A stretch of 64,000 bases of DNA from Ostreococcus lucimarinus (Eukaryota). The stretch lies in NCBI GenBank assembly GCA_000092065.1, contig CP000589.1. The stretch is one strand, 5' to 3'. The translations under genes were made by a program, and so were the position numbers. The notes below the pieces were generated by a model. It ran no database searches. It was not told the origin of the DNA and was given only the letters and a program-made list of their open reading frames with translations. Below, in pieces: positions 3,727 to 59,761 of the stretch (position 1 is the stretch's first letter; each line of letters begins with the position of its first letter).

Positions 3727-3746
3727 TCTATCTCATCTATCGCACG

Positions 3747-9781: not shown

Positions 9782-9868
9782 TCGTGCGCCGTGAAGGCGA
9801 CGGCGCGATCGCAAAGGGTGCGAACGATCGATCGACGCGACGCCGACGCGCGCGAACGCGTTCGAACG
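9782..9868. repeat. 87-bp perfect direct repeat, copy A (partner at 10791-10877)
   Basis: tcgtgcgccgtgaaggcgacggcgcgatcgcaaagggtgcgaacgatcgatcgacgcgacgccgacgcgcgcgaacgcgttcgaacg is identical at both sites by eye. Confidence 0.85.
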
Positions 9869-9991
9869 CTTCATCTGCGCGCTCGAGGTGCGCGATTTCG
9901 TCGACGCGATGCGGCGCGCGCGGAATCATCGCGAAGGCGCGTGTCGCGGCGCGATCGACCGGGCTCGACGCGAGACTGACGACGCGCGCGC

Positions 9992-10790
9992 GTGCGATCG
10001 GTGATTACGAAGGTTTTACTCTGGTCCGTGGTTCTCGTGCCCGGGCGAACGTCGGGGGCGTGGAACGACGCGGCGAGAGCGTACTACACGCGCGAGACGG
10101 TGCGTCAACGTTCGACGCGTTACGACATGGTTGGATTCCAGCAAATGATGCAATCTCTCGCCGAACGCAATCGACGAATCGCGCGCGAGCGCATCGAGTC
10201 ACTCGTGAACGAGTTCAGAGTCGAGTCCGAGGCCGCGAGTCGTAAGTTCATCTCTCAAGCCGAACAAGATTACGAAACGTTCGCGCGCGCCGCCGGGCGC
10301 CAAGCCGCCGAGCGTTCGCGAGAGTCCAAAACCATCGCCTCTCGCGTCGAAGCCCTCACTCGCACTTGTTGGTTCGTGTATTCGTTGATTTCCGCGGTGG
10401 GAATTTTCTTTCTCGGTGCTGGGTTTAGCGTGATGCACGGGATGCACGGGTTGATGGACCCGATGCCGTCTGAAAACATACGTATTGGGATCGCGGTGTT
10501 GGGCGCGTCGGCGTTGTTGGAAGGATTTTCGTTAAAGGTGGCGTACGAGTCGTTGCGCGACAACGCCAAGGCGCAAGGAATGACGCTGAGGGAATTTATC
10601 AAATCTGGTAAAGATCCCACCAGCGTGGCCGTGCTCGCAGAAGATGCTGCCGCGGTGTTGGGTTGTGGCATCGCGGGTACGGCGCTCATCGCGTGCGAAG
10701 TGACGGGGAGTCCGATGTACGACGCGATGGGCTCGATTGCTGTCGGTGGCCTTCTTGGGGTGACGGCAATGTACCTCATCAACAGTAACC
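9992..10790 (+). CDS. Zinc transporter ZnT9/SLC30A9-like cation-diffusion-facilitator fragment (TM3-TM6 only). Probably a truncated gene or pseudogene, or an internal exon.
   Basis: YSLISAVGIFFLGAGFSV..GMTLREFIKSGKDPTSVAVLAEDAAAVLG..SPMYDAMGSIAVGGLLGVTAMYLINSN aligns closely to the human SLC30A9 TM3-TM6 region. No TM1-2 upstream in frame and no C-terminal domain downstream; the ORF runs into the 87-bp repeat. Confidence 0.5.
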
Positions 10791-10877
10791 TCGTGCGCCG
10801 TGAAGGCGACGGCGCGATCGCAAAGGGTGCGAACGATCGATCGACGCGACGCCGACGCGCGCGAACGCGTTCGAACG
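10791..10877. repeat. 87-bp perfect direct repeat, copy B
   Basis: Identical to 9782-9868. Confidence 0.85.
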
Positions 10878-33807: not shown

Positions 33808-33833
33808 CGCCGGGTCGCGCGCGACGCGCGCGC

Positions 33834-34577
33834 GTGTGCGCGAGCGCGCGCACCGATCGCATCACTCGGCGTCGCGCATCGATGCGCGCGCGCGCGTCGA
33901 TACGCACGAACGACGCCGCGCGAACGATCGCGCGCACGCTCGCGCGCGCCCGTCGCGTCGACGCGCGCGCGCGCGCGCCGCTCGCGCGCGGGACGGCGGT
34001 GCGCGTCGGTGGCGGCGGCGACGCCATGGGACCGAACGTCACCGTGCGCGCGATCGAGACGGCGAGCGACGCGCAGAGGAAGGACCTGCACGTGGTTTTG
34101 GTGACGCCAAAGATTCCCGGGAACACCGGGTGCATCGCGCGGACGTGCGCGGCGTCGAGGGTGCCGCTGCACTTGGTGGCGCCGCTCGGATTTTCGCTCG
34201 ACGACGCGCAGTTGAAGCGCGCCGGGTTGGACTATTGGAAATCGGTGTGCGTCAAGGTGCACGATGATTGGGATGCGTTTTACGCGTATTGGCGCGAGCT
34301 CGGGGACGAGCGTGGGCGGTTGGTGGCGTTTTCAAAATTCGGCGCGCGGCCGCACGCGGAGGACGGCGCGTATCGACCGGGGGATTGGTTGTTGTTCGGC
34401 GCCGAGACCACGGGGCTGCCAGACGCGGCGATGGAGGCGTGCAAAGCCACGGGGGGGGTGCGTAGAATTCCCATCGACGAAAGTCACGTGAGGAGTTTGA
34501 ATTTGTCCGTGTCGTGCGGCATCGGCGTGTACGAGGCTTTGCGGCAACTCGACGGTTCGCCAACCGTGGACGAATGA
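33834..34577 (+). CDS. trmL: tRNA (cytidine/uridine-2'-O)-methyltransferase TrmL (SpoU-TrmH family)
   Basis: VVLVTPKIPGNTGCIARTCAA, LHLVAPLGF..DD..LKRAGLDYW, LLFGAETTGLP, SLNLSVSCGIGVYEALRQ. N-terminal extension; core starts near 34026. Confidence 0.8.
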   Translation: MCASARTDRITRRRASMRARASIRTNDAARTIARTLARARRVDARARAPLARGTAVRVGGGGDAMGPNVTVRAIETASDAQRKDLHVVLVTPKIPGNTGCIARTCAASRVPLHLVAPLGFSLDDAQLKRAGLDYWKSVCVKVHDDWDAFYAYWRELGDERGRLVAFSKFGARPHAEDGAYRPGDWLLFGAETTGLPDAAMEACKATGGVRRIPIDESHVRSLNLSVSCGIGVYEALRQLDGSPTVDE

Positions 34578-44760: not shown

Positions 44761-47418
44761 TTGCGAGCGATGGCGCGCGAAGACGGCGCGCGACGCAAGG
44801 AACGCAAGGACGAGCGCACGGTGGCGATGGAGAAGATGGTGATGGAACTCGCGGCGGCGGCGGCGGTGGTGGATGGGAATAAAACGTCGGTGAGCGAACG
44901 GGCGAGCGGGGCAAGCGGCGGGAGCAGCCTGACGAGGGCGCCGGACGCGGAGCGAGAGCGCGAGGAGGGACAAGCGTTGACGTTGGACGCGTTGGTGATG
45001 GCGAGCGCTGGATCGAATAAAAGAGCGAAGAGCGCGGGCGTTAAAGTGGCGAAACGGAAGAAGATGGAAGATAAGGGGGAGCGAAGGTGGTATTGTTGCT
45101 CGTGCAAGCAGACGCTGACGCCGGAACACTTCGATCCGAATTTGGAGACGTGTCGGTTGTGCTTGGCGAAACGTCGAGCGAAAGATCGGGCGAAGAAACG
45201 ACTTCGAGGGCTTCAGCTCAAGCATCACTTGTTGAGTGCGGATGAGAAAGATGTGGCGGCGTTTTTGTTGGGAGTGTATCATCCGGCGCTCACGCAGCAA
45301 GGGCCGCGATCTTCATCTTTTAACTCCATACAGATGAACGTGCAACGAGCGTCGATGGAAGTGAGCGCATTCGTAGAGGACTTCCGCAGCTTCCTCGAGG
45401 ACAAGCCCAAGGAACAAGCGGACAGATTGGTCCGCACGTTTTTGGGTTTGGACGATGCTGGAGAAAGGCTCACACCTCATCAAGTGATCAACGAGAAGGG
45501 TTCCGCGAAGAGGAATACGATGTCATCCAAAGCGAATAGCGCAAAGGCGACGCACAACTATCGCGCCCCAGCTTCATCGATGGGTGGCCGGCAAGAGTTG
45601 ACGAAGAGCCTGGACACCGTATACGATAAGTACGACGCGCTATTGAAAAACACCAGCGATGATCAAACGTGGGTTCGTTTCGCGGCGGAGAACGAGCAGG
45701 ACACTGATCTGGATGCTGAGAAGGTCAACTATTCCGCACCGATACATGAATCAGCTGCCGAAACCGGCACAAACGAGAAGGATGACGTGTACAGCGCCAT
45801 CATGCACGGCGCGGATCCCACCGTCAGTCATTACCTGTATCAATTCTTGTTCATGAATCAGCCGACAATCGGAGGCGAACACAGCACGATGGTCGTGGAG
45901 AGTGATCTCCCACAGCTTACGGGCCAGCTTCCATTGCGCGCAGTCGATAGCCTTTCGGAAGGGTCCAGCTTAAATGGTGCGACTAATGTGAGCTCGGAAT
46001 CGGACAACGTGTACAACACCTTGGATGAAGAGGAGCTGAACGGCAACGCATACGCGTTCAAGGGCTCGCTCGTGATGGGTTGGATTGGAGGCGCTCGTGA
46101 TGGAAAGAGAGAACTGCTAGCGAAAGAGAACGGTATCCTTCCGGACGATATGCACCCGCAAGCTGTGTTTAGCCATGGAAGACTGTTCGACGCGCGCACG
46201 CCTGGGAAGTTGGTTCCTCTCACCGAGACGGAGAACTTACACGGGTTTTCAGAAGATCTTGCGATTTTCCCCGTCAAGGATTCTTCGTCTGACATCGTTC
46301 GCATTCATATTCCGCCGGGATCTTTCAGCGAGGAGCTCGGTGTGAGAGCGTTGCACGATGGTCACTACATCGATTCTGAACTTCGCCACAGGCGCAACGG
46401 CGGAGCCGAGGTGATCCTATACCCGAACGGTAGAGACGATCGAGAGCGCAACGCAATCGTTATCCTCGGTGCTGTTCATTTACAATGTTTCGTTCGTAGC
46501 GGTACGGCGAAACAGATGCCTATCGGTTGCAACATCCCAGCGCTCTTCATACCGAGCCAAGCGCACGCGAAAGAGATTAGCGATGGCGTAGAGCACATTG
46601 CGCAAGTCAAGGGTACGAAAGCGGCCCGGCAGTTTTTGTCTTCGCTCGCGTACGTACTTGTGCACGGCGAACCAAAGAGCGCTAAGTTTGAGTTTGTCGT
46701 CGAAATGGCGCACATCCTCGCGCTCACGAGAACTTTGGATCTGCTCGAGCGATTGGCGATGTTGGCAAAGTCGTCGCTATCGAGCGATGATTCAGACACT
46801 TCTATCTCCGAAGTAGCGAGATTAGAAGTCTATAAGCCCTCGGATAATTTCTGGCAACACGCCGGTCATACCGACTCTTTTCTTGGAATCCTCCTTTGTC
46901 TTGTTGCGGGATTTATCCGTCTTATCGCTTCGGCTGTGAGCGGAGCGCGACTGAATTATGGATTCTATGCCACGCTCTTGGCCGCGGCCGCGCTTTCGGC
47001 AACGAACCCGAAGACCCGTGTAGACATCAAAAGCATTGCCTTCAACATGCTTTTTATCTGGGCACACGCAGCATCCATGCACTCAGATGATCTGACCAAT
47101 CAAATGACGTCTTACGGCAAGGCGCTGGTCATCACGCTTGCGCTCTCGGCACTGAACGCCTCGCATTCGCGCATGAGCAGCTCGTCAAGCTTTGTGTTAC
47201 CACAGCTCGCCTTTGCCGGAAGTGGCTATAACCCACACACCATTTTCCGCTTTATGAAGCAAGCGTTGCCTCAGGACGGAAGTATACCACAAAACGCGCT
47301 GCGAGCGCACGCCTGGACCGTTCACATCAGTTGCGCACTGCTGGCACCCGCGATCCTCATCTCTTGTATTTCGCAACTTCCAGGTGCACGAGTTCGCTCA
47401 AAATCTAAGCTTGCGTGA
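44761..47418 (+). CDS. Hypothetical protein (885 aa) with N-terminal Cys-rich motif (WYCCSCKQ..CRLC) and C-terminal hydrophobic helices; lower GC than flanks
   Basis: Long clean ORF; no family recognised. Confidence 0.45.
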   Translation: MRAMAREDGARRKERKDERTVAMEKMVMELAAAAAVVDGNKTSVSERASGASGGSSLTRAPDAEREREEGQALTLDALVMASAGSNKRAKSAGVKVAKRKKMEDKGERRWYCCSCKQTLTPEHFDPNLETCRLCLAKRRAKDRAKKRLRGLQLKHHLLSADEKDVAAFLLGVYHPALTQQGPRSSSFNSIQMNVQRASMEVSAFVEDFRSFLEDKPKEQADRLVRTFLGLDDAGERLTPHQVINEKGSAKRNTMSSKANSAKATHNYRAPASSMGGRQELTKSLDTVYDKYDALLKNTSDDQTWVRFAAENEQDTDLDAEKVNYSAPIHESAAETGTNEKDDVYSAIMHGADPTVSHYLYQFLFMNQPTIGGEHSTMVVESDLPQLTGQLPLRAVDSLSEGSSLNGATNVSSESDNVYNTLDEEELNGNAYAFKGSLVMGWIGGARDGKRELLAKENGILPDDMHPQAVFSHGRLFDARTPGKLVPLTETENLHGFSEDLAIFPVKDSSSDIVRIHIPPGSFSEELGVRALHDGHYIDSELRHRRNGGAEVILYPNGRDDRERNAIVILGAVHLQCFVRSGTAKQMPIGCNIPALFIPSQAHAKEISDGVEHIAQVKGTKAARQFLSSLAYVLVHGEPKSAKFEFVVEMAHILALTRTLDLLERLAMLAKSSLSSDDSDTSISEVARLEVYKPSDNFWQHAGHTDSFLGILLCLVAGFIRLIASAVSGARLNYGFYATLLAAAALSATNPKTRVDIKSIAFNMLFIWAHAASMHSDDLTNQMTSYGKALVITLALSALNASHSRMSSSSSFVLPQLAFAGSGYNPHTIFRFMKQALPQDGSIPQNALRAHAWTVHISCALLAPAILISCISQLPGARVRSKSKLA

Positions 47419-47509
47419 GCAAGCGTTGTATGAGATAAGTTTTGGTACCATTACACTCTTTTAACGCTATCATCTACTAAACTGATATTCCGCAAGCTCT
47501 CCAATTGCT

Positions 47510-48553
47510 TCACGTTGCCGCGCCCGTTGTGTACAATTCCATCGCCAAACTCACTAGTGCGATGCTAATGATTATTCGCAGCGGCATCGTCTCGTGTTCG
47601 ATACATACGTGAATGATGGCGACCACGAGCATCGACAGCGCGGACACAAAACATTTGTAAATGTTGTCCAGGTACTTCAGAATGAAAGACACTGCCAACC
47701 CGCCGAACGACAGGACGACCAAACTTACCCAAGCATAAAAGTTGAATCCGGTAAAAAGTCCATTCTTTAACGCTTCTCCTTTCCAAACTATTGGAATCGC
47801 ACCACAAATCACGCCCCAAAAGTACAGTTGCATATTCTGCCAATGAATGCTATCCGTCGCCCCGTCTTGGTTGCTGCCCTTGAGCAGCTTCTCCGACAAC
47901 ACACTCCCGGACGCAGCGATGAACGTGTTTATCACCACAAGCACGTACCCATACACACTCCCGCGTAACTGATTAGAATCTGTGATCTCCGCCGTGACAG
48001 ATCCCAATAATAACAAGAACAGCGCTCTCCACTGCAACGAAGTTAACCGCCGCCCGAGCAGCGTCCACATCAGCACCCCGGTACTTAAAATTTTCAAGTT
48101 ATTCATGATCTGATACGTCGACGGCCCCAGTTCTTGTATGATGAGGAGCATACAGTTATTCGCGACGAAATAGCACAGCGCGGGAAGCGCAAACGAGGTG
48201 AAGCGTTTCGCGCTCCACGTCACTTCTTCGACTCCTCCGCACGCCCGCGACGTCGTCAAAAAGATGAACGACAACACCAGCTTCACCGACTCCATCGTGA
48301 ACGCCAGCACCACGGTATCGTACGGATAATCATCATCACTGTTCCGGCTCAGACTCGCGAATATCGTTCCCGCCACTTGCAGGAACAAGTACGACACCAT
48401 GCTCAACACCTTGATCGACAGCGGCGTTTCCGTCCTTCCGTCGCTCTTCTTCTCGGTCGGCGTCGCATCTCGCGCGAGTTCGCCGTCCGCATCCTTCCCA
48501 TCTCGCGCGAGCAGCGATTCGCGCTCATTCGCGCTCGCGCTCGCGCTCGCCAT
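47510..48553 (-). CDS. Nucleotide-sugar transporter (SLC35A UDP-Gal/CMP-Sia transporter family)
   Basis: 10-TM layout. YFVANNCMLLIIQELGPSTYQIMNNLKILSTGVLMWTLLGRRLTSLQWRALFLLLLG aligns to the conserved SLC35A2 core. Confidence 0.8.
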   Translation of the reverse strand: MASASASANERESLLARDGKDADGELARDATPTEKKSDGRTETPLSIKVLSMVSYLFLQVAGTIFASLSRNSDDDYPYDTVVLAFTMESVKLVLSFIFLTTSRACGGVEEVTWSAKRFTSFALPALCYFVANNCMLLIIQELGPSTYQIMNNLKILSTGVLMWTLLGRRLTSLQWRALFLLLLGSVTAEITDSNQLRGSVYGYVLVVINTFIAASGSVLSEKLLKGSNQDGATDSIHWQNMQLYFWGVICGAIPIVWKGEALKNGLFTGFNFYAWVSLVVLSFGGLAVSFILKYLDNIYKCFVSALSMLVVAIIHVCIEHETMPLRIIISIALVSLAMELYTTGAAT

Positions 48554-48663
48554 CGCGTCGGTGTCTGCCGCAACGAACGATGGGTGTTACGTCGCGCGAG
48601 CCATCGCGGCAGACGCCGACGCGATTCGCGTCGTTCGCGGACGAAGCGACCGCGCGCGAACCA

Positions 48664-49955
48664 TGGAATGCGTCGATTCTCTCGACGACACCGCGCACGC
48701 GGAGGACGGGCACGAGGAGTACTGCGCGGACACGGCGGTGTCGACGGCGCGCGTCCGGACGCTGCCGAAGACGCGCATCGTCGCGCGAAACGCGTGCGCG
48801 ATCACGGGCGCGAGCGACTTCGAGCCGCTGCTCACGCTGCGAGATTTTCCGGTGGGGATGTACTGCGTCCCGGAGGAGTGGGACGGCGTGGAGTACGTCG
48901 CGGACATGCGATGGTGCGTGAGCAAGAGCTCGGGGGTGATCCAGCTCGCGGAACTCATCGAGGCGGAGACGCTGTATGATTGTCAACACGAGAGCGGCGC
49001 GATCGGAGGACTGTGGAAGCGACATCACGAAGAATTTTGTGAGTTTATCGATGCGTACGGATGTGAGAGCGTGTTGGAGATCGGCAGTGGACACGGACAT
49101 CTGGCGAAGGAGTTTGTCGCGCGAAGACGCGGGAAATGCCGATGGACAATGGTGGAACCGAACTTGCCGAGTTGGTTGCTCACGGGTGATCATCCGAGCG
49201 AAATTCACCCGATCTCGGCGTGGTTTTGTGATTCGTTCGAATTACCGAAAGACGTACCGAAAATCGACGCTGTGGTACATTCGCACACGTTTGAGCACAT
49301 CTACGATTACGACGAGTTTCTTCGCAACGTGGCAAGAATGGAACCCAAGTTTCAAATATTTTCGGTGCCACACCAGCGGGAATGGCTGGCGCGTGGTTGG
49401 CAAAATAGCATCATGTTCGAACACCCGCAACTGTTGACGCCGAAAGCGATCGAGTACATTATGTCACGTCACGGTTTCGAGTTGCAAGGAAAGAAAGTTT
49501 TCGCCGACGGGCACTCAATGTTTTACGCGTTTTCATACGCGGGAAACGCGAGCAAAAGCGAGACATCGCAGCAATCTCTCGATGAGTACGCAGAGAACAA
49601 GCGTCTTTTTCGTAACTGGCTCAAATCCAACGTTGATTTCGTCCAGAATGTGAACGATCGCATCGATGAAGCGACTATGAATGGAGAAAAGCCAACAGTT
49701 TACATGTTTGGGGCGCACATCTTCACGCAGTACCTCGTCAGCTTTGGATTGCGTATATCCGCAGTTGAGGCGATTTTGGATAACGCCGAAGGAAAGCAAG
49801 GAAAGAGACTGTACGGCCTTCCTCTCTTGGTGCACTCTCCGAAAATTCTCTCTAATGTAGAACGACCAATCGTCATCTTACGAGTCGGCGCGTACGCCGA
49901 AGAAATAAAACGCGGCATTCTCGAAGTGAACGCTCGCACGGTCTTTTGGGAGTAA
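48664..49955 (+). CDS. SAM-dependent methyltransferase with TylCIII-type architecture (NDP-hexose C-methyltransferase-like; bacterial sugar-modification type)
   Basis: VLEIGSGHGHL glycine-rich SAM motif. HSHTFEHIYD..FEHPQLLTPKAIEYIMSRHGFEL middle domain. C-terminal domain VYMFGAHIFTQYLV..ILDNAEGKQGKRLYGLPLL as in C-methyltransferase C-terminal domains. The ORF track begins at 48399, but that extension overlaps the transporter gene, so the start was set at the Met at 48664. Confidence 0.65.
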
Positions 49956-50025
49956 GGCGGGTACAGACGTTGAACGATTGTGTGTTAGCATAGCTTAGAA
50001 GCTGTAGTACTTACATATTTCAATT

Positions 50026-52347
50026 TCACGCCATGACACTTGTCACACCCCGCGCGGCCCACTCGGCGTCGTACAAATGCGTAAACGCATTGGCCAGCCT
50101 TAAAATGTACATGAAGGGAAAGTTGGGTTCGCTGAGCTTGCTCGCATCGATGCACCCGAACCACACAGCCACAAACAAAGGAAATCCAGCCAAAGCGCTG
50201 CTTACTTGTGCGATGCGCTCATCTTTCGGTACGACGACGTTGTCCAACTTTTGCCTAGAATCATAATACGTGTTGACGAGCACTTCGGCCAATTGTTCAA
50301 AGTCCTCTATGTCACAGCTCTCGACGAGAAGGAACACGATGTCTTCGATACCTTGACCTGGGCGCGCGTACTGCCAATCAATAAAGATTGGTTCGCCGCC
50401 GTTCACTTGATAATCCCAGAATAAATTTGGAAATTTGAGGTCACCGTGAAGAAGCGTTTGCGGAGCTCTTCGAAGTCGCAGCTCGGCGTCCGCAAAGTTT
50501 GCCGCCGCGTGGTCAAACAGCACGAAAACTTGTTCACCGAGCGTATTGAACCATCGATTTCGAAACGTTGCGTAGTGTTCTTGCACGTGCTGTCGCATAT
50601 ACGTGTCATAAACCGATAGCCTTCCCAACGGCGCGCCTCGGAAGTGTGAATGCAACCTCGCCATCGTGTTCACCACCTTGAGGCCGCTTTCAAGACAAAA
50701 GTCTGGCGCTCGATCATACTTTCGTAAATCCTCCATGACGATAGCGCGTGACGTCGGAAGGACGCCGTAGCAGATCGGTACACGTACCGGCATGATACTC
50801 GCAAAATCTTCATAGAACTTACACTCGGTGTCGTGAAGGTTCAAGTGTTCGCTCACCTCCATCAAGACTCCGTGATCAGAGTTTTCTTGCTTCACCACAA
50901 GATGTCTTGAACCGGAGGTCGCCGAAAGAATTTCAGAAATGTAGCCACCGCTTGCTCGAATCGGATACACAACGGATCGTTGACCCAATACTTCGGACAG
51001 TTCGTTAGAAAGGTGCGCCACAGAATTCATCGTCTCCAATAACTCCTCTGGGTCTTCAGCGACATAATTCGCGATAAACGAATCGCTGCCTGACACGTTT
51101 GTATTAACAGAGACGACGTATTGGCATCCCGCTGCGCGTCCGGAAATCAAACCGCATCGAGAGTCCTCGAAGACAATGGAGTTTCCGATCGAGACTCCAA
51201 GTCTTCTCGCCGCTTTCAAGTACGGCTCCGCGTTTGGTTTACCAAATCTCACGTCACTCGCGGAAATAAGCGGTAAATCATCCAATGCAAGATGTTTCAA
51301 CAAAGCTTTGGCGGCGGTTCTGTTGGAATTAGTCACTACGGACACTGGTCCGAGCGCACGACACTTTTGCACAAATTCCACCGCGCCTGGAATTTCTTTG
51401 GTCTTTTCGATGTATCGCAAGAACGCTTCGTCTTTCTGCTCTGACGAAATCTGCAGCTTGAAACGCTGCGCGACTTGGGCGTCAGATTGTCCGCTGATGT
51501 GTTTGAGGAAGAATTCTTCGTCGACAAACGCGCCCATCGGAGCGAGGATCTCGCGCCAAGCCGCGACGTAGGCATCCGTGGTGTCCACAAGAGTACCGTC
51601 CAAATCAAACAAAAATGCATATCCCTGTTTGGACAAGTACTGCTCTAAACACTCAGGCGTACCGATGTTCGAGTATTGGTCCTCAGCGATGACGACGGAG
51701 CTGACGTGCTTGTCTCGCGCGACGTACTCTTTCAAAACGCATGAAACGTACGCCTCGCCGCGCTCAAACTTTCCTTCTTGAGTCAAAATATCCTTCGTCA
51801 ATTCAAGAAATTCTTTTTCACTCGCGAACCAGTACGCTCCAGTGTTCGCGTAAGGACCCACGCGCGACTTCTCCGCGATTTTGGTCACGCGTCCGCCGTC
51901 CCCGCTCGTCTCAACGTATGAATATTTTGCCGCCGTCTCACGCTCACGCGCGGATTCCTCAAAGCACAGGACCGCCGCGCGCACCTCCGGTTGTTTTTCC
52001 AGCGCCCGAAACCGTTCGATGACGTCGCAATGATACACCGCATCGCAGTCCACCAACAGGAGCGACGCGTCGTTTGTCGCCGACACCGTCCCCAGCGCGA
52101 GCGCCGCCGTCTCCGCCGCCCCGACCGTCGCACGCGCCAAGCGCACCGTGGTGAACCCTCGTTCGGGGACGGAATCATCGAAATTCGTCACCACGACGCA
52201 CGTGTCGCGGTTGTCATCGACGCACAGCGCTTCCGTGACGACGTGTATCATCGCCTTGCCGATCACTGGGATGAGCGGCTTGATGTCTTCGTAGCCTTGC
52301 GCTCGGAAGCGCTCGCCGCGTCCACACGCTGGAATGAGGACGCGCAT
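50026..52347 (-). CDS. Tri-domain fusion enzyme: sugar-phosphate nucleotidyltransferase (LicC/MurU-like) + HAD-IA hydrolase (beta-PGM/phosphatase-like) + APH/choline-kinase-fold kinase
   Basis: N-terminal VLIPACGRGERF..KPL (G-x-G-x-R NTP-transferase motif). Middle FLFDLDGTLVDT (HAD motif I) with further HAD motifs. C-terminal LLHGDLKFPNLFW and IFIDWQYA (Brenner catalytic-loop and DFG-equivalent motifs of APH/ChoK kinases). Confidence 0.75.
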   Translation of the reverse strand: MRVLIPACGRGERFRAQGYEDIKPLIPVIGKAMIHVVTEALCVDDNRDTCVVVTNFDDSVPERGFTTVRLARATVGAAETAALALGTVSATNDASLLLVDCDAVYHCDVIERFRALEKQPEVRAAVLCFEESARERETAAKYSYVETSGDGGRVTKIAEKSRVGPYANTGAYWFASEKEFLELTKDILTQEGKFERGEAYVSCVLKEYVARDKHVSSVVIAEDQYSNIGTPECLEQYLSKQGYAFLFDLDGTLVDTTDAYVAAWREILAPMGAFVDEEFFLKHISGQSDAQVAQRFKLQISSEQKDEAFLRYIEKTKEIPGAVEFVQKCRALGPVSVVTNSNRTAAKALLKHLALDDLPLISASDVRFGKPNAEPYLKAARRLGVSIGNSIVFEDSRCGLISGRAAGCQYVVSVNTNVSGSDSFIANYVAEDPEELLETMNSVAHLSNELSEVLGQRSVVYPIRASGGYISEILSATSGSRHLVVKQENSDHGVLMEVSEHLNLHDTECKFYEDFASIMPVRVPICYGVLPTSRAIVMEDLRKYDRAPDFCLESGLKVVNTMARLHSHFRGAPLGRLSVYDTYMRQHVQEHYATFRNRWFNTLGEQVFVLFDHAAANFADAELRLRRAPQTLLHGDLKFPNLFWDYQVNGGEPIFIDWQYARPGQGIEDIVFLLVESCDIEDFEQLAEVLVNTYYDSRQKLDNVVVPKDERIAQVSSALAGFPLFVAVWFGCIDASKLSEPNFPFMYILRLANAFTHLYDAEWAARGVTSVMA

Positions 52348-52572
52348 ACTTATATTTTCATATAAATCTCCGCGGCGTGGGTCAGATCACGCGCGCGGCG
52401 CCCAGGGGCGCGTAATGACATTTCGTCGGGTGGAGGGTGTTACAAAATAAACGCGCGCGAGCTAAAGCCCGCCGGGCTAAGAATTGGAGTTGCGTCTAAC
52501 TCTTAGACCCCGTCCCGGTGCGTGCGCGGTGAAGTCGCGCCACCGTACACCATCCCTTGATTTCGAGGAAGG

Positions 52573-53208
52573 CTAGCACGTGGGTCCACGCGCCGCGGGC
52601 CGCTCGGGAGGCGCCGGCTTGGCCGCCGCCGAGCCCGCGGCCTCAGCCTCAGCCGCGGCCGCGGCCGCGCGCTTCTCGAGCCAGTCTTTGGCTCGCTCGC
52701 GGTATTTAGCGTTCGCCTCTGTACTAATCTTGTTTGCCGCGTTACAGGCATTGATCATCGTCGTGTTGCCCTCAGAGATTCCGTGACACCAATGCACACC
52801 CATCCCGTCGCGATCCGGCCACGCCGAGTGCCCTAACGATATGCCGCGACGGACGTTGCAGTGGGCGTAGTCCGCCACGTGAAAAATAGATGCCTCAGGA
52901 CTCATTTGTGAACGGGGACTTACGCACGCGACGCTTTTCAATACATCCGTTCCTTGACCCCAAAAAGCATTGGCGCGCGAACTGTGCACGACGTAAAAGG
53001 CGTCGTTGTACTTCCAATACCAGTCCTCGTCAAAGATAAGCGTAGGTTGGACAGCGTCCGTGTCGTGGTTCGTGTCCCGACCGTCCCACAACGTCCTGGC
53101 AAAGTCCACGGGCGGTGGCGCGTACCAAAAGTACTCGGGTCGACCGTGCATGTACCACGAAAAGTGTATGTTTTTCTCCTTCTCCACTTTACGCGCCATG
53201 CAAAGCAA
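52573..53208 (-). pseudogene. Truncated tandem paralogue of the C-terminal half of the 53237-54394 gene
   Basis: LCMARKVEKEKNIHFSWY..PPPVDFARTLWDGR..FDEDWYWKYNDAFYVVHSS is colinear with LCMARKVEQEKNIHFSWF..PPPVDFATTLWDGR..FDEDWRHKYNDALYAVHSS. No N-terminal half present. Confidence 0.5.
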
Positions 53209-53236
53209 CTTCTGAGCTTTGTCAAAGTGCTTCTAA

Positions 53237-54394
53237 CTAGCACGTCGGTCCCATCGATTGCATCGGCGGGTCGTCGGCGTACGCGTTCAAAGAGCGCCAG
53301 TGGCTTACTTGCGCTCGGTAAACTTTAGTCTCTGACACACTAATTGCCTGGGCACGCTCGCACGGATGTATGTGCCTCTGAAGTGTGTAATCTACGCAAC
53401 TCAGCGTACCTTGTCCTGGCTTTGCGGTTGGCCGAGCCGATCGCTCGAACCCGATTCCCACGGCCCTCGACGCCGCCCCGACGAGGTCTACCACTTTGTG
53501 AAGGGCTGTCTCCGGAGTCATACGTTCAAGGAAGACGTGACCGGTCGCGGGGATCTCAGCTCGGCATGGTAATTTCGACAAAATCGATGACCCTGGGCCC
53601 AGTATACCATCGGCGTGCGAACTGTGCACGGCGTATAAGGCGTCGTTGTACTTGTGACGCCAATCCTCGTCAAAGATGAACGCGTGCGCGCTGTCTGTAC
53701 CCCTACCGTCCCACAACGTCGTGGCAAAGTCCACGGGCGGCGGCCCGTACCAAAAGTAATCGGGTCGACTCCGAACGAACCACGAAAAGTGTATGTTTTT
53801 CTCCTGCTCCACTTTGCGCGCCATGCAAAGCAGCCTTTTGCTCAAATCGAACTGCGCGTACGTCGTCGCCGGCGAAAAGTAGTCGTCTTTTTTCACCTTG
53901 AATCCACGCGCAGCGCAATGCTGTCCCCAAGGATCCTTCGTGTCTAAGTCATAAGCCGAGGCCGTGTAAAACGAAACCGCCACGGGTCGAATGACGTCCA
54001 GCGCGCGTTGCAGCACGTGCGGATACACCTTTGGAAACATCGCCGATCGGTCTCGCCACCCGCTCACGTCTGCGATACTCAGGAGCATGATCGGGTGCAC
54101 GTTCACGCAGCGCTCCGCCATCCAATCCAGCACATTCGTCTTCAAACCCTTGGAGACGTGATCCAACACCATCCCGCGCACCGATCCTCCGATGAGGAAC
54201 GCGACGTCCGCGCGTCCCTCCGCGCACGACTGCGCGCCGAGCGCGTCGCGCCGCGCCGTCGCCGACGCGACGACGATCGCCACCGCCGCGATCAGCGACA
54301 ATAACGACCCAACGCGCGTCCGTCGCGCGCTCCTAGAGCCATCATCGCCGATGAGCGGCGTCGCCTCGTCCGTCATCGCGCCGCGAACACCCAT
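53237..54394 (-). CDS. Type-II membrane (Golgi-type) protein of unknown function, possibly a glycosyltransferase-like enzyme
   Basis: Short cytosolic tail, TM anchor (VGSLLSLIAAVAIVVASA), large luminal domain. Paralogue fragment immediately downstream. Confidence 0.45.
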   Translation of the reverse strand: MGVRGAMTDEATPLIGDDGSRSARRTRVGSLLSLIAAVAIVVASATARRDALGAQSCAEGRADVAFLIGGSVRGMVLDHVSKGLKTNVLDWMAERCVNVHPIMLLSIADVSGWRDRSAMFPKVYPHVLQRALDVIRPVAVSFYTASAYDLDTKDPWGQHCAARGFKVKKDDYFSPATTYAQFDLSKRLLCMARKVEQEKNIHFSWFVRSRPDYFWYGPPPVDFATTLWDGRGTDSAHAFIFDEDWRHKYNDALYAVHSSHADGILGPGSSILSKLPCRAEIPATGHVFLERMTPETALHKVVDLVGAASRAVGIGFERSARPTAKPGQGTLSCVDYTLQRHIHPCERAQAISVSETKVYRAQVSHWRSLNAYADDPPMQSMGPTC

Positions 54395-54421
54395 CGATCA
54401 CGAACCGCGTCGCCGCGCGCG

Positions 54422-54612
54422 CGACGCGCGTCGGTTTTCGCGTCGCCGCGCGCGCGACGCGCGTCGGTTTTCGCGTCGCCGCACCGCGCGCGCGATGGTG
54501 CGTCGCACAGTGCGACGCCGATGCATCGCATCGCGCGCGTCGCCATGTCCTCGGCGCCCCTGCACGACGCGCGCGCGCGCGGAAGGATGTCCGACGCGAA
54601 GGATGTCCGACG
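54422..54612. repeat. Near-identical segmental duplicate of 56904-57048 (5' end and start codon region of the S9 peptidase gene), with internal 32-bp and 12-bp tandem duplications
   Basis: Direct by-eye alignment; 2 mismatches. Confidence 0.85.
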
Positions 54613-54617
54613 TATCA

Positions 54618-55015
54618 ATACGTCGACGGCCCCAGTTCTTGTATGATGAGGAGCATACAGTTATTCGCGACGAAATAGCACAGCGCGGGAAGCGCAAACG
54701 AGGTGAAGCGTTTCGCGCTCCACGTCACTTCTTCGACTCCTCCGCACGCCCGCGACGTCGTCAAAAAGATGAACGACAACACCAGCTTCACCGACTCCAT
54801 CGTGAACGCCAGCACCACGGTATCGTACGGATAATCATCATCACTGTTCCGGCTCAGACTCGCGAATATCGTTCCCGCCACTTGCAGGAACAAGTACGAC
54901 ACCATGCTCAACACCTTGATCGACAGCGGCGTTTCCGTCCTTCCGTCGCTCTTCTTCTCGGTCGGCGTCGCATCTCGCGCGAGTTCGCCGTCCGCATCCT
55001 TCCCATCTCGCGCGA
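54618..55015. repeat. Segmental duplicate of 48113-48510 (N-terminal ~134 codons of the nucleotide-sugar transporter gene, minus strand), 398 bp, essentially identical
   Basis: The antisense ORF 54615-55565 reproduces ARDGKDADGELARDATPTEKK...QELGPSTY of the transporter. Confidence 0.9.
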
Positions 55016-55188
55016 ACAGCGGTTCGCGAGTCTGGAAAGCGCTTCCGTGCGGTACAAGCGAGTCGCCCCAATAGGAGTAGGTGTAGCCTAGCTGTAGCTG
55101 TAGCTCCGTCGCCGACAAATGTCCGACCGATCGACAGAGACCGACGCGCGTCCGCAGCCGACACTGCGCGCGCCCACGCGACGCGAGA

Positions 55189-56742
55189 ATGAGTGACAAA
55201 GACGCGCAAAGCATCTCTCGCGGCGAGCGCTCGAATTTGCTCGCGCGCAACGCCGCGAACGGCGTCGTTGAGGGTGTTGCGAGCATCCTGGACGAAGAGC
55301 GCGGTGAGACCGACGTGAGCGAGCGATCCCGAGCGAGAACGTCGACGTCGCGAGGATGTCTCGCGAGTGTTGCGCTGATGGCGTGTGCGGTCGGCGCGGG
55401 GATGGCGGTCGCGTCGCGCGGGGGGGTCGACGACGCGAGGACGAGCGCACGAGCTCGCGGCGGTGGGAAATCGACGCTCGGGATCAGTGGAGCGACACGA
55501 GCTCGCGGCGGTGGGAAATCGACGCTCGGGATCAGTGGAGCGACGGGAGTGCGGACGTATATCATAGCAGATACGTCGCCCGGAGACGAGATGGAGAGAT
55601 CTAGGAAAGGACGCGATTACGTGTTCAACCTGTTCAAAACGCACGGTGGTTTGAGCGACGCCGAAGCGCGCAATACTGTGGAAATCTCGAGTGCGACGTT
55701 TCCTTCGCTTTGGCCGGATACCTTCGAGACAGCGCGAAGCGCGACGCACGATGTACTAGCGGGAGCCCTTGCTGCTTCAGAAGCGAACGTTCCAACCAGT
55801 GAGTTGCCGTATCCCATCAGACAGGTTCACGAATCGCAGCTCAATCCACAGCACCGTTGCGTCGGCGAAAAATGCGTATTCCCGTATAACCACCACCTTG
55901 GATGTCTTCTATCTCACATGTCTGTGTGGAAGAAAGCTATTTCGCGAGGTGAGGATCGGTTTGCCGTGTGGGAGCAAGATGGTATGGGGATCGCTTCCGT
56001 GAGCCCGCTTGACTACACAGAGCTCGGACGCCAGCTTCCTCGCGACGCAGATATGGTCTGGCTCCTCCCCATTGGAAGAAGCACCGGTCAATTCGTGAAA
56101 AAGTTCCGCTCAAGGGCGTTTGGCACGTGGGGGAAAGGTACCTGGGGTCTCGTAAAGACAGACTGGTCGCCCGAATCGATGCACACGGCGATGAATTCAA
56201 CGCACGTTTATTTGTACAAGTGGAACAAAATGTGCTCGTGGGCAGGAACGGCAGCTCTCATGTTCACCAAGCAAGGCGTCGAGAAAATTCTTCGGTACAG
56301 TACCGAACACAGTCTCGACATGATCGATGCTTTCCTCATTGGCGGATGCATCCATAAATCGGGAAAGACGAGTCGTCTTTCCTTGAACTGTTATCACGCG
56401 TCGAGCGTGCCAACCAAGAAAGAGCTCCTGGGTGGAATCGTGCCCGATTGGTACACTGACGAAACCGTGGGCGATCGAGCACTTCCTCAAGAGCAGGTTG
56501 ACGCCATGGATCGGGATGACGCCAAGTTCAACTCGCTTGGTTGTCAGCGCGGCGGCGACGAGTTCAAGTCAAAATCTGCCTGGATTCCCACGTCCTGGGC
56601 TGGAGACGACTCCGCGGATTCGTGCGTTCCCTCCTGGAACGCCCCGGTGGACGTGTGCGATGCATCCGTGAAGTATCCACTCGATGGACACAAGTACTCA
56701 TACCTCGGCAGCGCGATGTTGCGTACAAAGCCCGAGCGTTAG
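55189..56742 (+). CDS. Type-II membrane glycosyltransferase family 25-like protein
   Basis: N-terminal TM anchor. GCLLSHMSVWKKAISRGEDRFAVWEQDG resembles the GT25 motif (GC.LSH...W..I......IFEDD). Contains an in-frame 48-bp duplication. Confidence 0.55.
   Translation: MSDKDAQSISRGERSNLLARNAANGVVEGVASILDEERGETDVSERSRARTSTSRGCLASVALMACAVGAGMAVASRGGVDDARTSARARGGGKSTLGISGATRARGGGKSTLGISGATGVRTYIIADTSPGDEMERSRKGRDYVFNLFKTHGGLSDAEARNTVEISSATFPSLWPDTFETARSATHDVLAGALAASEANVPTSELPYPIRQVHESQLNPQHRCVGEKCVFPYNHHLGCLLSHMSVWKKAISRGEDRFAVWEQDGMGIASVSPLDYTELGRQLPRDADMVWLLPIGRSTGQFVKKFRSRAFGTWGKGTWGLVKTDWSPESMHTAMNSTHVYLYKWNKMCSWAGTAALMFTKQGVEKILRYSTEHSLDMIDAFLIGGCIHKSGKTSRLSLNCYHASSVPTKKELLGGIVPDWYTDETVGDRALPQEQVDAMDRDDAKFNSLGCQRGGDEFKSKSAWIPTSWAGDDSADSCVPSWNAPVDVCDASVKYPLDGHKYSYLGSAMLRTKPER
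55451..55546. repeat. 48-bp tandem duplication x2 inside the GT25-like coding region (encodes ARARGGGKSTLGISGAT twice)
   Basis: Seen directly. Confidence 0.85.
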
Positions 56743-56968
56743 CGACGCTTGTAAAGAAACAGCCTAGGGGTGCTTGAATCCGGTATTGGGAATTTCCCGA
56801 TACGTATCAAAAACGACTGTTTTCATACTGTTTGCCCATACGAAAAGCCTAATACGTTGATACGCCAATACGGTATCAGCTCGTATCAAGTGCAGCAGGC
56901 CTAGACGCGCGTCGGTTTTCGCGTCGCCGCACCGCGCGCGCGATGGTGCGCGGCACAGTGCGACGCCG

Positions 56969-59761
56969 ATGCATCGCATCGCGCGCGTCGCCATGTCCTC
57001 GGCGCCCCTGCACGACGCGCGCGCGCGCGGAAGGATGTCCGACGCGAAACGCGCGCTCGTCGCGCGCGCGAGAGGCGCGTTCGACGCCGTCGCGGGACGG
57101 CGTCGACGCGTGAACGTCGCGAGCGGTGGTGACGAACGCGGGACGACGACGCGGGAGGACGCGCGCGCGAGCGATGGGGACGACGCGAACGGGTACCGAC
57201 GCCCGCCGGACGCGCTGACGCAGTTCACGGAGCGACCGCAGAGCCCGAACGTGACGGTGTCGCCCGATCGAAGGCGCTTGCTGTATTTGCACAAACCGCC
57301 GCCGCTGCCGGACGTGGCGACGCTCGCGCGAGAGGAGGTGAAACTGGCGGGCGTGCGGATCGATGCGGCGCAAAATTCGACGTCGAGGATGGGACATCAA
57401 ACGAAATTGGCGATCGGAGCGATGCCTGCGAGAGAGGAGGAGATCGGAGCGGCGGAAGATTTCGTCGGGACTCCGGAGAACGCGCTGATTAACTACGTGA
57501 GTTGGTCGCCGGATGGGACAAAGATAGCGTTTACGACGCGCTCGAGCGGAGAACCGGGTGAGCCAGAGCGAGGACCGTTGACACTTTGGATCGCCGACGC
57601 GCACACGCGACAGTGCCGAGTGCTGCTTCCCGATCGTGGGTTGAATACTATTTTTGAGTCGTACAGTTGGTTGAACGACGACGTCATCGTCGCGTGTTGC
57701 ATTCCAGAAAATCGACCCAAGGAAGCGCCGAAGCGACCGCAGACGCCGTTCGGGCCGAGAATTCAAACAAACCGAGGTGGTAACGTGGCACAGGCGCGAA
57801 CGTACGCCGATTTATTGAAAGACTCGCACGATGCGGATTTATTCGATTACTATTGTTCGTCGGAACTCGTGGCGGTGGACGTCTCCACCGGGGCGACGAA
57901 GACTTGGGGTGATGGAAAGGCGAGAATCTACACGCGCTGCGATCCGTCGCCCGACGGAAAATATGCTATCGTCGAAGCCATTCATCGGCCCTACTCGTAC
58001 TCGGTGCCGTGTGGTAGGTTTCCAAAGAAGGTTTGGGTGGCGGACAGCGACGGCAAAGTCGTGCGCGAGGTCGCGGACTTACCTTTGGCCGAGAATGTGC
58101 CCATCGTGCACAACGCCACGCGTAAAGGACCTCGTGCGGTGAACTGGCGTTCGGATAAGAGTGCGTCGTTGTACTGGACCGAGGCGCAAGATGAGGGTGA
58201 TCCGAGAGTCGAAGTCTCCCCTCGAGACGTCACGTACACGGTCGACGTCGGCAAAGATCCTGCGGCGACGCCCAAGACGCTGTTTCAAACTGATTATCGC
58301 TACGGTGGCGTCGCATGGGGCGGCGATGATATGTCGATTTTATATGAGAGTTGGTACAAGACACGCACGTCGCGAGTGTGGGTGACTTCGCCGGGCGACG
58401 CCGATCCGAATGCGACAAAGCGCATGCTTTGGGAGCGCGACTACGAAGACAGTTACAACGCTCCCGGTTCATTTGCTACACGCCGGACGGAAGATGGATC
58501 GTACATTCTGGCGCGTGTCGTCGGACCGACGCCGTTGGGAGAAGGTAAACCCACGGGTCCGGGAGTGAAGCTGTTGTTGCAGGGAGACGGCGCGAATCCA
58601 GAAGGCGATAGACCCTTCATCGACTTGTTCGACGTCGACACCGGCGCCAAGCATCGAATGTGGGAAAGCAAACCGCCGTATTTGGAGCATCCGGGGAGTT
58701 TGATCAGCGATTACGGCGGCCCCGAGGCGGCGCCTGTCACGCTCGAAACTATGCGCATATTGTTCTCTCGAGAGAGCCCGTCGGAGAATTCGCAATTCTT
58801 TTCGCTTCAAATGACCGCCGACGGCTCGCCCGGAAAAGAGGTGAAAATTTCAAATTTCCCTCATCCACATCCCGACTTAAAGGAGCTGCCGAAGGAAATA
58901 ATCAAGTACAAGCGCGACGACGGCGTTGAGCTCAACGGCACGCTGTACACGCCGCCCGGGTACGACGCCGCGCACGATGGTCCGCTACCACTCCTGATGT
59001 GGGCTTATCCACGAGAGTTCAAAACAAAAGAAGCTGCATCGCAGCTACGCGATTCACCGTATCGCTTCACCGGTATCGGCCCATCGAGCGCGTTGGTGTG
59101 GCTTGCGCGTGGATACGCAGTGCTCGACGGGCCGGCGTTGCCCATCATCGGCGAAGGCGAGGGTGTGGAACCGAACGATACGTACGTCGAACAACTCGTC
59201 GCTGGCGCGCGTGCGGCGGTGAACGAAGTCGTTGCGCGCGGTGTCGCGGATCCGGAGCGCATCGCTGTCGGCGGTCACTCGTATGGCGCGTTCATGGCGG
59301 CGAATTTGCTCGCGCACGCACCGGATTTGTTCGCGTGCGCCATCGCGCGAAGCGGGGCATACAATCGAACGCTAACGCCTTTCGGGTTTCAAGCCGAAGA
59401 ACGCACGCTGTGGGAAGCGCCGGAAACGTACAACGCGATGTCACCGTTCATGAACGCGCACAAGATTAAAAAGCCGATTTTATTGATCCACGGCGAGGAG
59501 GATCAAAACAGCGGTACCCATCTCATGCAATCCGAACGCTTCTTCTCCGCTCTCAAGGGTAACGGTGCCGAGGTCAAGCTTGTCATTTTACCGCACGAGT
59601 CTCACGGCTATCGCGCCAAAGAAAGCATCAACCACATGCTCGCCGAGACGTCTGATTGGCTGGACGCGCACTGCGCGCCAGGGGCGAAGAAAGCCGCCGA
59701 GGCGCGCGCGGAGGAAGCCGCCAAGGCGAAGCGCGACGCCGAGGAGATGGTTTCGAAGTAA
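56969..59761 (+). CDS. S9 family serine peptidase (prolyl oligopeptidase / glutamyl endopeptidase CGEP-like), organelle-targeted
   Basis: N-terminal beta-propeller region and a C-terminal alpha/beta hydrolase with GGHSYGA (GxSxG), plus downstream Asp and His (HESHGY). Confidence 0.8.
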   Translation: MHRIARVAMSSAPLHDARARGRMSDAKRALVARARGAFDAVAGRRRRVNVASGGDERGTTTREDARASDGDDANGYRRPPDALTQFTERPQSPNVTVSPDRRRLLYLHKPPPLPDVATLAREEVKLAGVRIDAAQNSTSRMGHQTKLAIGAMPAREEEIGAAEDFVGTPENALINYVSWSPDGTKIAFTTRSSGEPGEPERGPLTLWIADAHTRQCRVLLPDRGLNTIFESYSWLNDDVIVACCIPENRPKEAPKRPQTPFGPRIQTNRGGNVAQARTYADLLKDSHDADLFDYYCSSELVAVDVSTGATKTWGDGKARIYTRCDPSPDGKYAIVEAIHRPYSYSVPCGRFPKKVWVADSDGKVVREVADLPLAENVPIVHNATRKGPRAVNWRSDKSASLYWTEAQDEGDPRVEVSPRDVTYTVDVGKDPAATPKTLFQTDYRYGGVAWGGDDMSILYESWYKTRTSRVWVTSPGDADPNATKRMLWERDYEDSYNAPGSFATRRTEDGSYILARVVGPTPLGEGKPTGPGVKLLLQGDGANPEGDRPFIDLFDVDTGAKHRMWESKPPYLEHPGSLISDYGGPEAAPVTLETMRILFSRESPSENSQFFSLQMTADGSPGKEVKISNFPHPHPDLKELPKEIIKYKRDDGVELNGTLYTPPGYDAAHDGPLPLLMWAYPREFKTKEAASQLRDSPYRFTGIGPSSALVWLARGYAVLDGPALPIIGEGEGVEPNDTYVEQLVAGARAAVNEVVARGVADPERIAVGGHSYGAFMAANLLAHAPDLFACAIARSGAYNRTLTPFGFQAEERTLWEAPETYNAMSPFMNAHKIKKPILLIHGEEDQNSGTHLMQSERFFSALKGNGAEVKLVILPHESHGYRAKESINHMLAETSDWLDAHCAPGAKKAAEARAEEAAKAKRDAEEMVSK

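Follow-up and report, generated by a model that had tools for sequence, protein, structure and literature searches.

Serial template switching of the FoSTeS/MMBIR kind reportedly underlies complex rearrangements. Insertions templated from the flanks, both directly and by snap-back, are a recognised scar of polymerase theta (Pol theta) or synthesis-dependent end joining (PMC4912351, PMC5068794, PMC2943611), and insertions templated in cis and in trans are a Pol theta hallmark (PMC4912351, PMC5068794). Ostreococcus tauri was reported to encode Pol theta (OUS43494.1), Ku70/80 and Lig4, and in its transformants the inserts are flanked by a 518-bp direct target duplication and by fillers of 55-83 bp (PMC8002553). 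Transposons of the Ac/Ds type leave upon excision a footprint of hairpin-derived palindromic additions centred on the element-adjacent base (PMC5873905). On the larger scale, the hypervariable outlier chromosome (SOC) of Mamiellales is known for glycosylation-related genes, gene copies from standard chromosomes, tandem duplications and NHEJ-type junctions (PMC5498103, PMC5082852, PMC13390643).

The locus considered here lies in a 64-kb stretch of Ostreococcus lucimarinus DNA (64,000 nucleotides analysed as a whole, hereafter the window), which begins with a (CCCTAAA)n telomere repeat (positions 1-194) and has a GC content of ~60% with GC-rich spacers. The 773-aa protein that it encodes is 100% identical, along the 168 aa available for comparison, to XP_001419690.1 of O. 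lucimarinus CCE9901, and the stretch is accordingly assigned to this species or a very close strain. Between the genes of a nucleotide-sugar transporter (NST) and an S9 peptidase it contains a mosaic of duplicated ends of these same two genes. The mosaic is a genuine DNA-repair scar, a seam joining two stacked gene cassettes, and from its junction sequences we infer that error-prone end joining of the Pol theta type produced it. In common with the Pol theta or synthesis-dependent microhomology end-joining scars, it has a filler copied from the flanks in direct and inverted orientation and near-junction variants; a short microhomology (3 bp) occurs at one other junction of the insert (A'|C, see below), while D|S9 is blunt. 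The inserted pieces (411 bp and 1.74 kb) are far longer than typical templated insertions of Pol theta (PMC4912351, PMC5068794, PMC2943611). The insertions in O. tauri transformants (PMC8002553), obtained in the same genus, are alike in the direct target duplication (518 bp there, 145 bp here) and in the short junction fillers, those of O. tauri being of unknown or foreign origin; there, however, the insert is the transforming plasmid, whereas here it is the alga's own DNA from three loci, in a natural rearrangement polymorphic in the sea. The chain of near and distant segments, the flanking duplication, the microhomology and a second jump-back mosaic in the window are also features of FoSTeS/MMBIR, but the transposon termini of one inserted segment (D) are exact and one of the junctions is blunt, so that ligation of free fragments fits better than replicative copying. 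As to the SOC, the locus shares all the above-listed features with it but belongs to an ordinary gene-dense chromosome arm of about 60% GC, being situated in the subtelomere ~55 kb from the chromosome end amid ordinary housekeeping genes; it thus resembles a miniature counterpart of the hypervariable outlier chromosome, but on a standard chromosome.

Three natural states of the interval between NST and S9

The relevant features of the window are as follows.

47510..48553, minus strand: nucleotide-sugar transporter (NST), 347 aa, ATG at 48553; Pfam Nuc_sug_transp, E=9e-41
48554..54394, both strands: cassette E, a four-gene island (Pfam; gene calls on allelic contigs)
about 48663-49955, plus strand: methyltransferase of cassette E (Pfam)
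50026-52347, minus strand: NTP-transferase/HAD/kinase fusion of cassette E, 773 aa (Pfam)
52573-53208, minus strand: 208/211-aa ORF of cassette E
53237-54394, minus strand: 385-aa gene of cassette E, paralogue of the 208/211-aa ORF
54406..54494, plus strand: 33-bp minisatellite (x2.8) native to the spacer that separates S9 from the 385-aa gene (TRF)
54456..54600, plus strand: repeat B', positions -65..+80 of the S9 peptidase gene behind their native upstream sequence (self-BLAST, allele comparison, translation)
54601..54617, plus strand: junction filler GGATGTCCGACGTATCA, 17 nt, between S9 +80 and A' (sequence comparison and TRF)
54618..55028, minus strand: repeat A', truncated NST fragment, codons 147..11 (self-BLAST)
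55026..56764, plus strand: segment C, 1,739-bp copy of an unlinked locus, 99.4% identical to contig L011
56765..56903, plus strand: segment D, 139 bp, a complete but internally deleted version of a hAT-like non-autonomous transposon of 961 bp
56904..57048, plus strand: repeat B, positions -65..+80 of the intact S9 gene, forming its 5' end (self-BLAST, allele comparison)
56969..59761, plus strand: intact S9 (prolyl-oligopeptidase family) peptidase, 930 aa, ATG at 56969; Pfam Peptidase_S9, E=3e-29

Allelic contigs were retrieved from many metagenomes by exact-protein look-up and proved to be 99.7-100% identical to the window where aligned. The interval between NST and S9 occurs among them in three natural states, E, G and F. 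In E alleles NST is followed by the methyltransferase, the NTP-transferase/HAD/kinase, the 208-aa and the 385-aa genes and then by S9; in G alleles it is followed by segment C, a 182-bp linker (D') and S9; in the F allele, which is that of the window, the order is NST, the island, S9' (-65..+80), 17 nt, NST' (codons 147..11), C, D and S9. Cassette E is accordingly present in E and F alleles and absent from G alleles. The E contigs L003 and L009 are continuous, carry the island with a single S9 5' segment, place the 385-aa gene about 130 bp from S9 and are devoid of the 2,303 bp at 54601-56903. The proposal of the first-pass annotation that the event behind the mosaic assembled the island is not supported, as in these two contigs the four-gene island exists without the mosaic. 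In all six G contigs (L029-L034, six samples) a full-length NST is joined at codon 11 to C, the A'|C junction being the same to the base, and L029 runs on through the 182-bp linker D' into S9. From the structures of the E, F and G contigs it follows that F is E and G in tandem, each with its own flanking-gene ends, and that the mosaic is the sole F-specific junction, at which cassette E, with its right flank, adjoins the left flank of cassette G.

Near-identical repeats are classic sites of mis-assembly, and several scaffolds at this locus are indeed unreliable (L001 and L002 have N gaps, L017 and L030 are possible chimeras), hence a repeat collapse, which the first-pass annotation named as its alternative, or a chimera had to be considered. 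It is contradicted by an F contig from another sample (L010, 2,834 bp), which is 100% identical to window positions 52663-55496 and spans both edges of the mosaic into the following DNA, and by four contigs from other samples (L004-L007), which cross 54600|54618. The unique 17-nt filler is identical in all five. The ends of L004-L007, each exactly one k-mer (127 or 55 nt) inside the repeat, fit a true two-copy repeat. Since independent metagenome contigs carry the same seam, we reject an assembly artefact, the chance of which we regard as negligible, and consider the seam to be real and of single origin. The window's own C|D and D|S9 junctions were found in no independent contig: the single scan of metagenome DNA gave only the donor locus of D, and the contigs found via protein variants carry D' or the native context in place of the window's C|D|S9 arrangement. 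L002 was also examined as a source allele in which the native NST would equal the copy, and was discarded, for this scaffold has a run of N exactly there.

As a separate observation, the 208/211-aa ORF and the 385-aa gene are paralogues (41% identity), and the island contains an older partial tandem duplicate.

The duplicated segments and the filler at the seam

Self-BLAST of the window confirmed both duplications, and the comparison of alleles located the seam in L010 and L004-L007 and established the absence of block 54601-56903 from L003 and L009; the duplications are real. Repeats A and A' (48113-48523 and 54618-55028) match over 411 bp with 99.5% identity, two mismatches and no gaps (E=0), repeats B' and B (54456-54600 and 56904-57048) over 145 bp with 98.6% identity and two adjacent mismatches (E=1e-68), and a further match of 27 bp links 54423-54449 with 56904-56930. 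All three are in direct orientation, and nothing comparable is expected by chance.

According to self-BLAST and translation, repeat A comprises NST codons 11-147 (48113-48523) and is the source or partner of A', which is devoid of the NST start codon and the first 10 codons. Two variants of A', 7 and 13 nt from its right edge (native equivalents 48517 and 48511), are common to 6/6 G alleles. In the S9 pair, the copy in the original context is the left one (54456-54600), which is identical to the empty (E) alleles, and the second copy is that at 56904-57048, beside the inserted DNA. The two mismatches between them are a CG at 56951-2 of B in place of the TC present in B' and in the E alleles; this CG also occurs in the G allele L029, so that it represents a haplotype variant, and its interpretation as a repair-associated mutation was ruled out. 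Neither stump is a functional gene: the S9 stump, B', is a dead end with an ORF of 41 codons at most (54521-54646), and the NST stump is missing both ends. A search for non-coding RNA in 54000-57300 gave no Rfam match at E<=0.1.

With regard to the seam, the equivalent of 57048 (54600) is followed by the equivalent of 48113 (54618), both in direct orientation, which is a head-to-tail junction of the tandem-duplication type; the interiors of the two "copies" are dissimilar, the first being the four-gene island and the second being segments C and D. The mosaic itself is the left end only of the 2,303-bp block 54601-56903, which is absent from other wild genomes.

The initial description of the mosaic is confirmed in part. 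Its 145-bp S9 segment is near-identical to 56904-57048, but it is this left segment that stands in the native context, the one at 56904-57048 being the second copy. The NST segment does start with the equivalent of 48113 and is near-identical to its source, but instead of 398 bp with the first ~134 codons it has 411 bp with codons 11-147 and no start codon. The 32-bp duplication thought to be internal to the copy is the native 33-bp minisatellite, which the mosaic-free alleles L003 and L009 also contain and which is shorter by one unit in L002. What had been described as a 12-bp duplication and a ~5-bp spacer together constitute one 17-nt filler at 54601-54617. The two sources are the genes flanking the variable interval, as was noticed, but the mosaic is not simply filler copied from both edges of an island: its S9 piece is a duplicated target or flank, whereas its NST piece and the adjoining junction are common to the G class (L029-L034), where the full NST abuts C. 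Finally, two further parts of the insert, the 1,739-bp interchromosomal gene copy and the 139-bp transposon, went unmentioned.

The first interpretation is supported insofar as the mosaic is a true rearrangement footprint, with end joining and a templated filler as the mode of repair. Nt 1-12 of the filler are a direct re-copy of the left flank, from bases 16 nt upstream (a 16-bp tandem slip), and nt 8-15 (CGACGTAT) correspond, when reverse-complemented, to the 8 nt with which A' begins. The 12 direct and 8 inverted nucleotides, overlapping by 5, explain 15/17 nt of the filler, only CA being untemplated. As to other junctions, A'|C has a 3-bp microhomology (GCG), at C|D' in the G-type contigs 12-13 nt of the C end are re-copied in inverted orientation, and D|S9 is blunt. 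Variants cluster within 15 nt of a junction. The Pol theta gene lies outside the 64-kb window. Self-BLAST also revealed a second mosaic in the window with the pattern "jump back, copy about 90 bp" (9779-9868 and 10788-10877), for which the exact-protein look-up gave no allelic contigs (9.8-10.9 kb).

Segments C and D and the linker that replaces D

Segment C carries an intact 517-aa ORF (55189-56742) together with 163 bp upstream and 22 bp downstream of it. Its native locus was found at about 690 kb, in the middle part, of a chromosome-scale contig of 1.13 Mb (L025), as well as in L023/L024, with the gene order MCM6, PATROL1, GT, MCM-binding, zf-DNL, 357 aa, 517 aa, DUF842, PIG-S; the left synteny of this locus is kept in a sister species, the homologue there being 77% identical. 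With respect to the native locus, C reaches ~50 bp into the 3' end of the 357-aa gene on its upstream side and on the other side stops 8 bp short of the ATG of the next gene. The product of the 517-aa ORF is probably a GT25-like glycosyltransferase: the mediocre AF2 model (pLDDT 60) has GT25 galactosyltransferases as all of its best 15 Foldseek matches in the PDB (E from 2e-6 to 2e-4, with TM-scores of just 0.21-0.47), the Pfam GT25 score is 18.4 bits, which is below the 24-bit cut-off, and the PDB sequence match to COLGALT1 has E=0.14.

Segment D differs from its surroundings in GC content (44%) and has both termini, TAGGGGTGCTT on the left and GCAGCAGGCCTA on the right. Its ends, as set by the window junctions, coincide with those of a 961-bp element in contig L016 (2002-2962), which is flanked on both sides by a perfect 8-bp duplication ATGGATCT (a single instance). 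Hence D is a hAT-like transposon in miniature, complete at both ends but internally deleted. Terminal inverted repeats of hAT elements are short and have a YARNG-type consensus; in the present case the left terminus TAGGGGTGCT matches the reverse complement of the right one TAGGCCTGCT at 10/15 positions. The L016 element has GT61 and GT90 genes as its neighbours; its termini are TAGG...CCTA, and its subterminal GATACG/CGTATC repeats are in inverted orientation. The 8-bp duplication of this full-length relative of D is hAT-like (Ac/Ds-type; PMC5873905), and its termini and subterminal repeats may be so too, but no transposase was found, the internal 152-aa ORF of the element having no Pfam match, and D is not accompanied by a target-site duplication in the window. 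A viral origin of D was rejected, as a scan of IMG/VR gave 0 matches and D is a host transposon.

The transposon at the right end, together with several gene fragments strung one after another, could be taken as an indication that the whole 2.3-kb insert is one mobile element that captured gene fragments in the manner of a Pack-MULE or Helitron, or that it is a retro-copy; in addition, of the three plus-strand occurrences of the 8-mer CGTATCAA in the window, two fall in D and one at the seam (54611). The structure of the insert speaks against such an origin, which we consider very improbable. Its left end (filler and NST fragment) has neither a terminal inverted repeat nor a D-type terminus, a flanking duplication of 145 bp is quite unlike the target-site duplication made by any transposase, and NST' and C are of opposite polarity. 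As to a Helitron, there is no pair of 5'-TC and 3'-CTRR-plus-hairpin ends and no Helitron 5' end, the 145-bp duplication is present, and the right-end CTAG requires a base of the flank and is then followed by A. As to a processed retro-copy, C lacks a poly(A), with no A-tract visible at 56764, its ends are not transcript-defined, and its collinearity with the source extends into the 3' end of the neighbour gene. The Helitron, Pack-MULE and retro-copy models were thus rejected on account of termini, duplication length, polarity and missing poly(A).

The exact termini of D join the end of C and, bluntly, S9 at -65, which suggests that transposase-cut ends took part in the end joining. In the G-type contigs L029, L017, L019 and L020, D is replaced by D', an unrelated 182-bp linker with breakpoints <=1 nt from those of D on both sides. 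D' starts with a 12-13-nt inverted copy of the C end and finishes with a re-copy of the S9 flank (ACGCGCGTC), each of these end copies being without one central nucleotide, as resolution of a hairpin predicts for hAT excision (PMC5873905); its ~160-nt core has no match among the sequences compared. Hypothetically, D would be the older state, and D' an excision footprint with filler. With 9-13 nt the palindromic (P-nucleotide) tracts are longer than is usual for hAT footprints, as is the filler of ~160 nt (PMC5873905), and for this reason the excision origin of D' is put forward only as a hypothesis.

Origin of the F allele and its meaning

Our best explanation overall, namely that the interval has three states and that the F seam arose by end joining, preferably in a single event, has in our estimation a probability of roughly 0.6. 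As for the particular route, the one we favour, without granting it quite an even chance, starts from a single break in the S9 5' end on an E chromosome, repaired in one event. The repair would have duplicated 145 bp of the target and closed the gap with a chain of pieces, namely an NST stretch of 411 bp copied over a distance of 6.5 kb, 1.74 kb of another chromosome and a miniature transposon that was free after its excision. Homologous pop-out between A and A' (411 bp) in F would later have given rise to G, which would have lost D through excision of the transposon, leaving D' behind. We count in support of this route the precedent of O. tauri (PMC8002553) and the second mosaic in the window. 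Against it, all of the 6/6 G alleles have a left-flank haplotype with at least eight fixed differences from the window and the E alleles, hence G is not a simple pop-out of a window-like F and an extra recombination step is needed; moreover, B shares its CG with a G allele while B' has the E-type TC, as is predicted for a hybrid of E and G.

Such a hybrid would reverse the order of events. In this case G came first, through a deletion in E that removed the NST start together with the island and the upstream region of S9 and put C and transposon D in their place; then, in a zygote or another diploid stage, non-homologous joining between a break in S9 (+80) of an E chromosome and one in NST (codon 147) of a G chromosome yielded F. 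Every step of this scheme is a simple structural variant, and sexual recombination has been inferred in Ostreococcus (PMC5498103). Haplotype data favour the scheme. The window is E-like left of the seam, with 0 differences from L003/L001 over 45845-48523 and 3 differences in 10,600 bp from L003, and G alleles have a distinct left-flank haplotype; A' carries two G-type variants (equivalents of 48511 and 48517), and B has CG as in L029, with B' having TC as in every E allele. Other positions are at variance with the scheme: at the equivalent of 48298, A' has the E-type T where 6/6 G alleles have C, the CG/TC site is polymorphic among the D'-bearing contigs (L017 and L019 have TC), and on the right side the differences between the window and E alleles, CG aside, start only about 2 kb past the seam. 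A non-homologous exchange in a diploid stage is also required, and the minimum for O. tauri was estimated as 1 meiosis per 94,000 mitoses (PMC5498103). Considering that in O. tauri linkage decays within 2-10 kb (PMC5498103), ordinary recombination can blur the signals of flank haplotypes. All in all, we view this order of events as unlikely, albeit a diploid-cell origin of F is possible.

The remaining route begins with a tandem duplication on E of 6.6 kb, from NST codon 147 to S9 +80, after which the second island was swapped for C and D, and G was produced from F by pop-out. It would readily account for the order 57048|48113, which is exactly a tandem-duplication junction, and for the E-type base in A' at the equivalent of 48298; tandem duplications are common in the outlier chromosomes of Ostreococcus (PMC5498103), and an older partial one is already present within the island. 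However, no EE allele was seen among the contigs, two independent events plus recombination are needed to account for the G haplotype, and the second event must have removed the second copy almost exactly. This makes the duplication-first route still less probable in our view, the rest of the probability falling to other or mixed histories.

The mosaic itself, consisting of two gene stumps and a repair scar, has no function. The consequences of the F structure concern the cassettes: its direct repeats could shed either of them, so that, as judged from the repeat arrangement, recombination between A and A' (411 bp) in F would yield a G-type allele and recombination between B' and B (145 bp) would yield E. 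A more far-reaching joint reading is that NST-S9 is a switchable three-state glycosylation locus on a standard chromosome, with the repeats as pop-out arms; its states would persist in the population under selection, for instance by prasinoviruses acting on cell-surface glycans, F would be a non-homologous hybrid of two haplotypes and a footprint of the otherwise unobserved diploid stage, and C would seed reciprocal translocations (L017/L030). Taken as a whole we hold this reading to be doubtful, although a link to virus resistance is possible.

Every component of the locus is of a known kind, and the locus is a well-resolved new example of an ordinary structural variant which involves no new mechanism. 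Its value is forensic: with three alleles and the donor loci recovered from public metagenomes, a natural complex rearrangement in a wild picoalga becomes readable at base resolution, and its junctions make legible the templated filler, the microhomology, the captured interchromosomal gene copy and excised miniature transposon, and a probable excision footprint. For the biology of O. lucimarinus it means that the content of glycosylation genes beside NST varies among wild genomes outside the known hypervariable chromosome, which would be ecologically relevant if the variation of the cassettes affects susceptibility to viruses.

Partial duplications and spacers towards the chromosome end

The window starts at the end of a chromosome, since its first nucleotides form a perfect telomere repeat. 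The following features lie in this part of the sequence:

1-194: perfect telomere repeat (CCCTAAA)n, about 28 units
5903-9874, - strand: M16 peptidase gene
9588-9666 and 33782-33981: imperfect GC-rich palindromes in intergenic spacers

The spacers holding the palindromes are very GC-rich (about 70%), and related GC-rich low-complexity spacers form a family that recurs at about 19.6, 22.5 and 31.9 kb of the window.

Part of the M16 peptidase gene, codons ~3-32, is present twice, at 9779-9868 and, 1 kb away, at 10788-10877, with 89 of 90 positions being identical. A cation-efflux ORF immediately precedes the second copy; its Pfam match stops at amino acid 267, and the ORF, which looks 3'-truncated, runs on into the antisense M16 copy. 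The arrangement, a head-to-tail junction followed by just a short retained copy, has the same architecture as the mosaic of fragments of the nucleotide-sugar transporter (NST) and S9 peptidase genes at 54456-55028.

The four-gene island between these two genes includes a pair of paralogous ORFs:

52573-53208: 211-aa ORF
53237-54394: 385-aa ORF

The 211-aa product shares 41% identity with the C-terminal half of the adjoining 385-aa one, and the likeness extends to the DNA level (82% between 52968-53207 and 53608-53832), so that the two ORFs mark a tandem duplication within the island that is partial and of older date. Neither ORF received a confident family assignment, a weak DUF7796 match being the only one obtained.

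A hAT-like element and the linker D'

L016 2002-2962: 961-bp hAT-like non-autonomous transposon with an 8-bp target-site duplication, ATGGATCT
L017 11576-11757: 182-bp linker D', also found in L019, L020 and L029

The transposon, flanked in its metagenome contig by a GT61 gene on one side and a GT90 glycosyltransferase gene on the other, contains a (GAGCTGATAC)n array and a 152-aa ORF with no Pfam match; among the sequences seen, this is the only full copy. The linker D', which precedes S9 in the island-free G alleles, has a ~160-nt core and carries the telomere-like motif AAACCCTAACCCC.

Segment C and its native counterpart

Segment C of the window (55026-56764), a copy of an unlinked native locus, holds the GT25-like gene.

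55443-55544: in-frame minisatellite, 48-bp x2.1, N-terminal part of the GT25-like gene
L017 9838-11575 (locus of 15,269 bp): segment C
L030 about 2224-3743: segment C

In-frame minisatellites in its N-terminal part, with pLDDT <50 in the predicted model, make the GT25-like protein vary from 499 to 518 aa among wild genomes, and at about 55284 other alleles of the gene differ by an indel of 51 bp.

In the G alleles (contigs L029-L035) NST has lost its promoter and the first 10 of its codons, including the native start codon, and the gene calls of 423 aa include 76 added codons taken from the antisense strand of the 5' part of segment C; as predicted by gene callers, NST of these alleles would be chimeric.

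The gene orders of L017 (MCM6...357aa, C, D', S9) and L030 (Rsm22, 882aa, NST, C, DUF842, PIG-S) resemble the two reciprocal outcomes of an exchange within C, with the native chromosome and the G allele as partners. Either the 1.7-kb duplicate seeded a natural reciprocal translocation, or the two contigs are assembly chimeras. Polymorphisms are common to the ectopic and native copies (window 55026-56764 compared with L011, L012, L023-L027 and L029-L031); one such site is the block at 56067-56072, where CCC-AT alternates with AAA-CC. Since the same polymorphisms occur in both, the comparison suggests that gene conversion or exchange has linked the two C loci.
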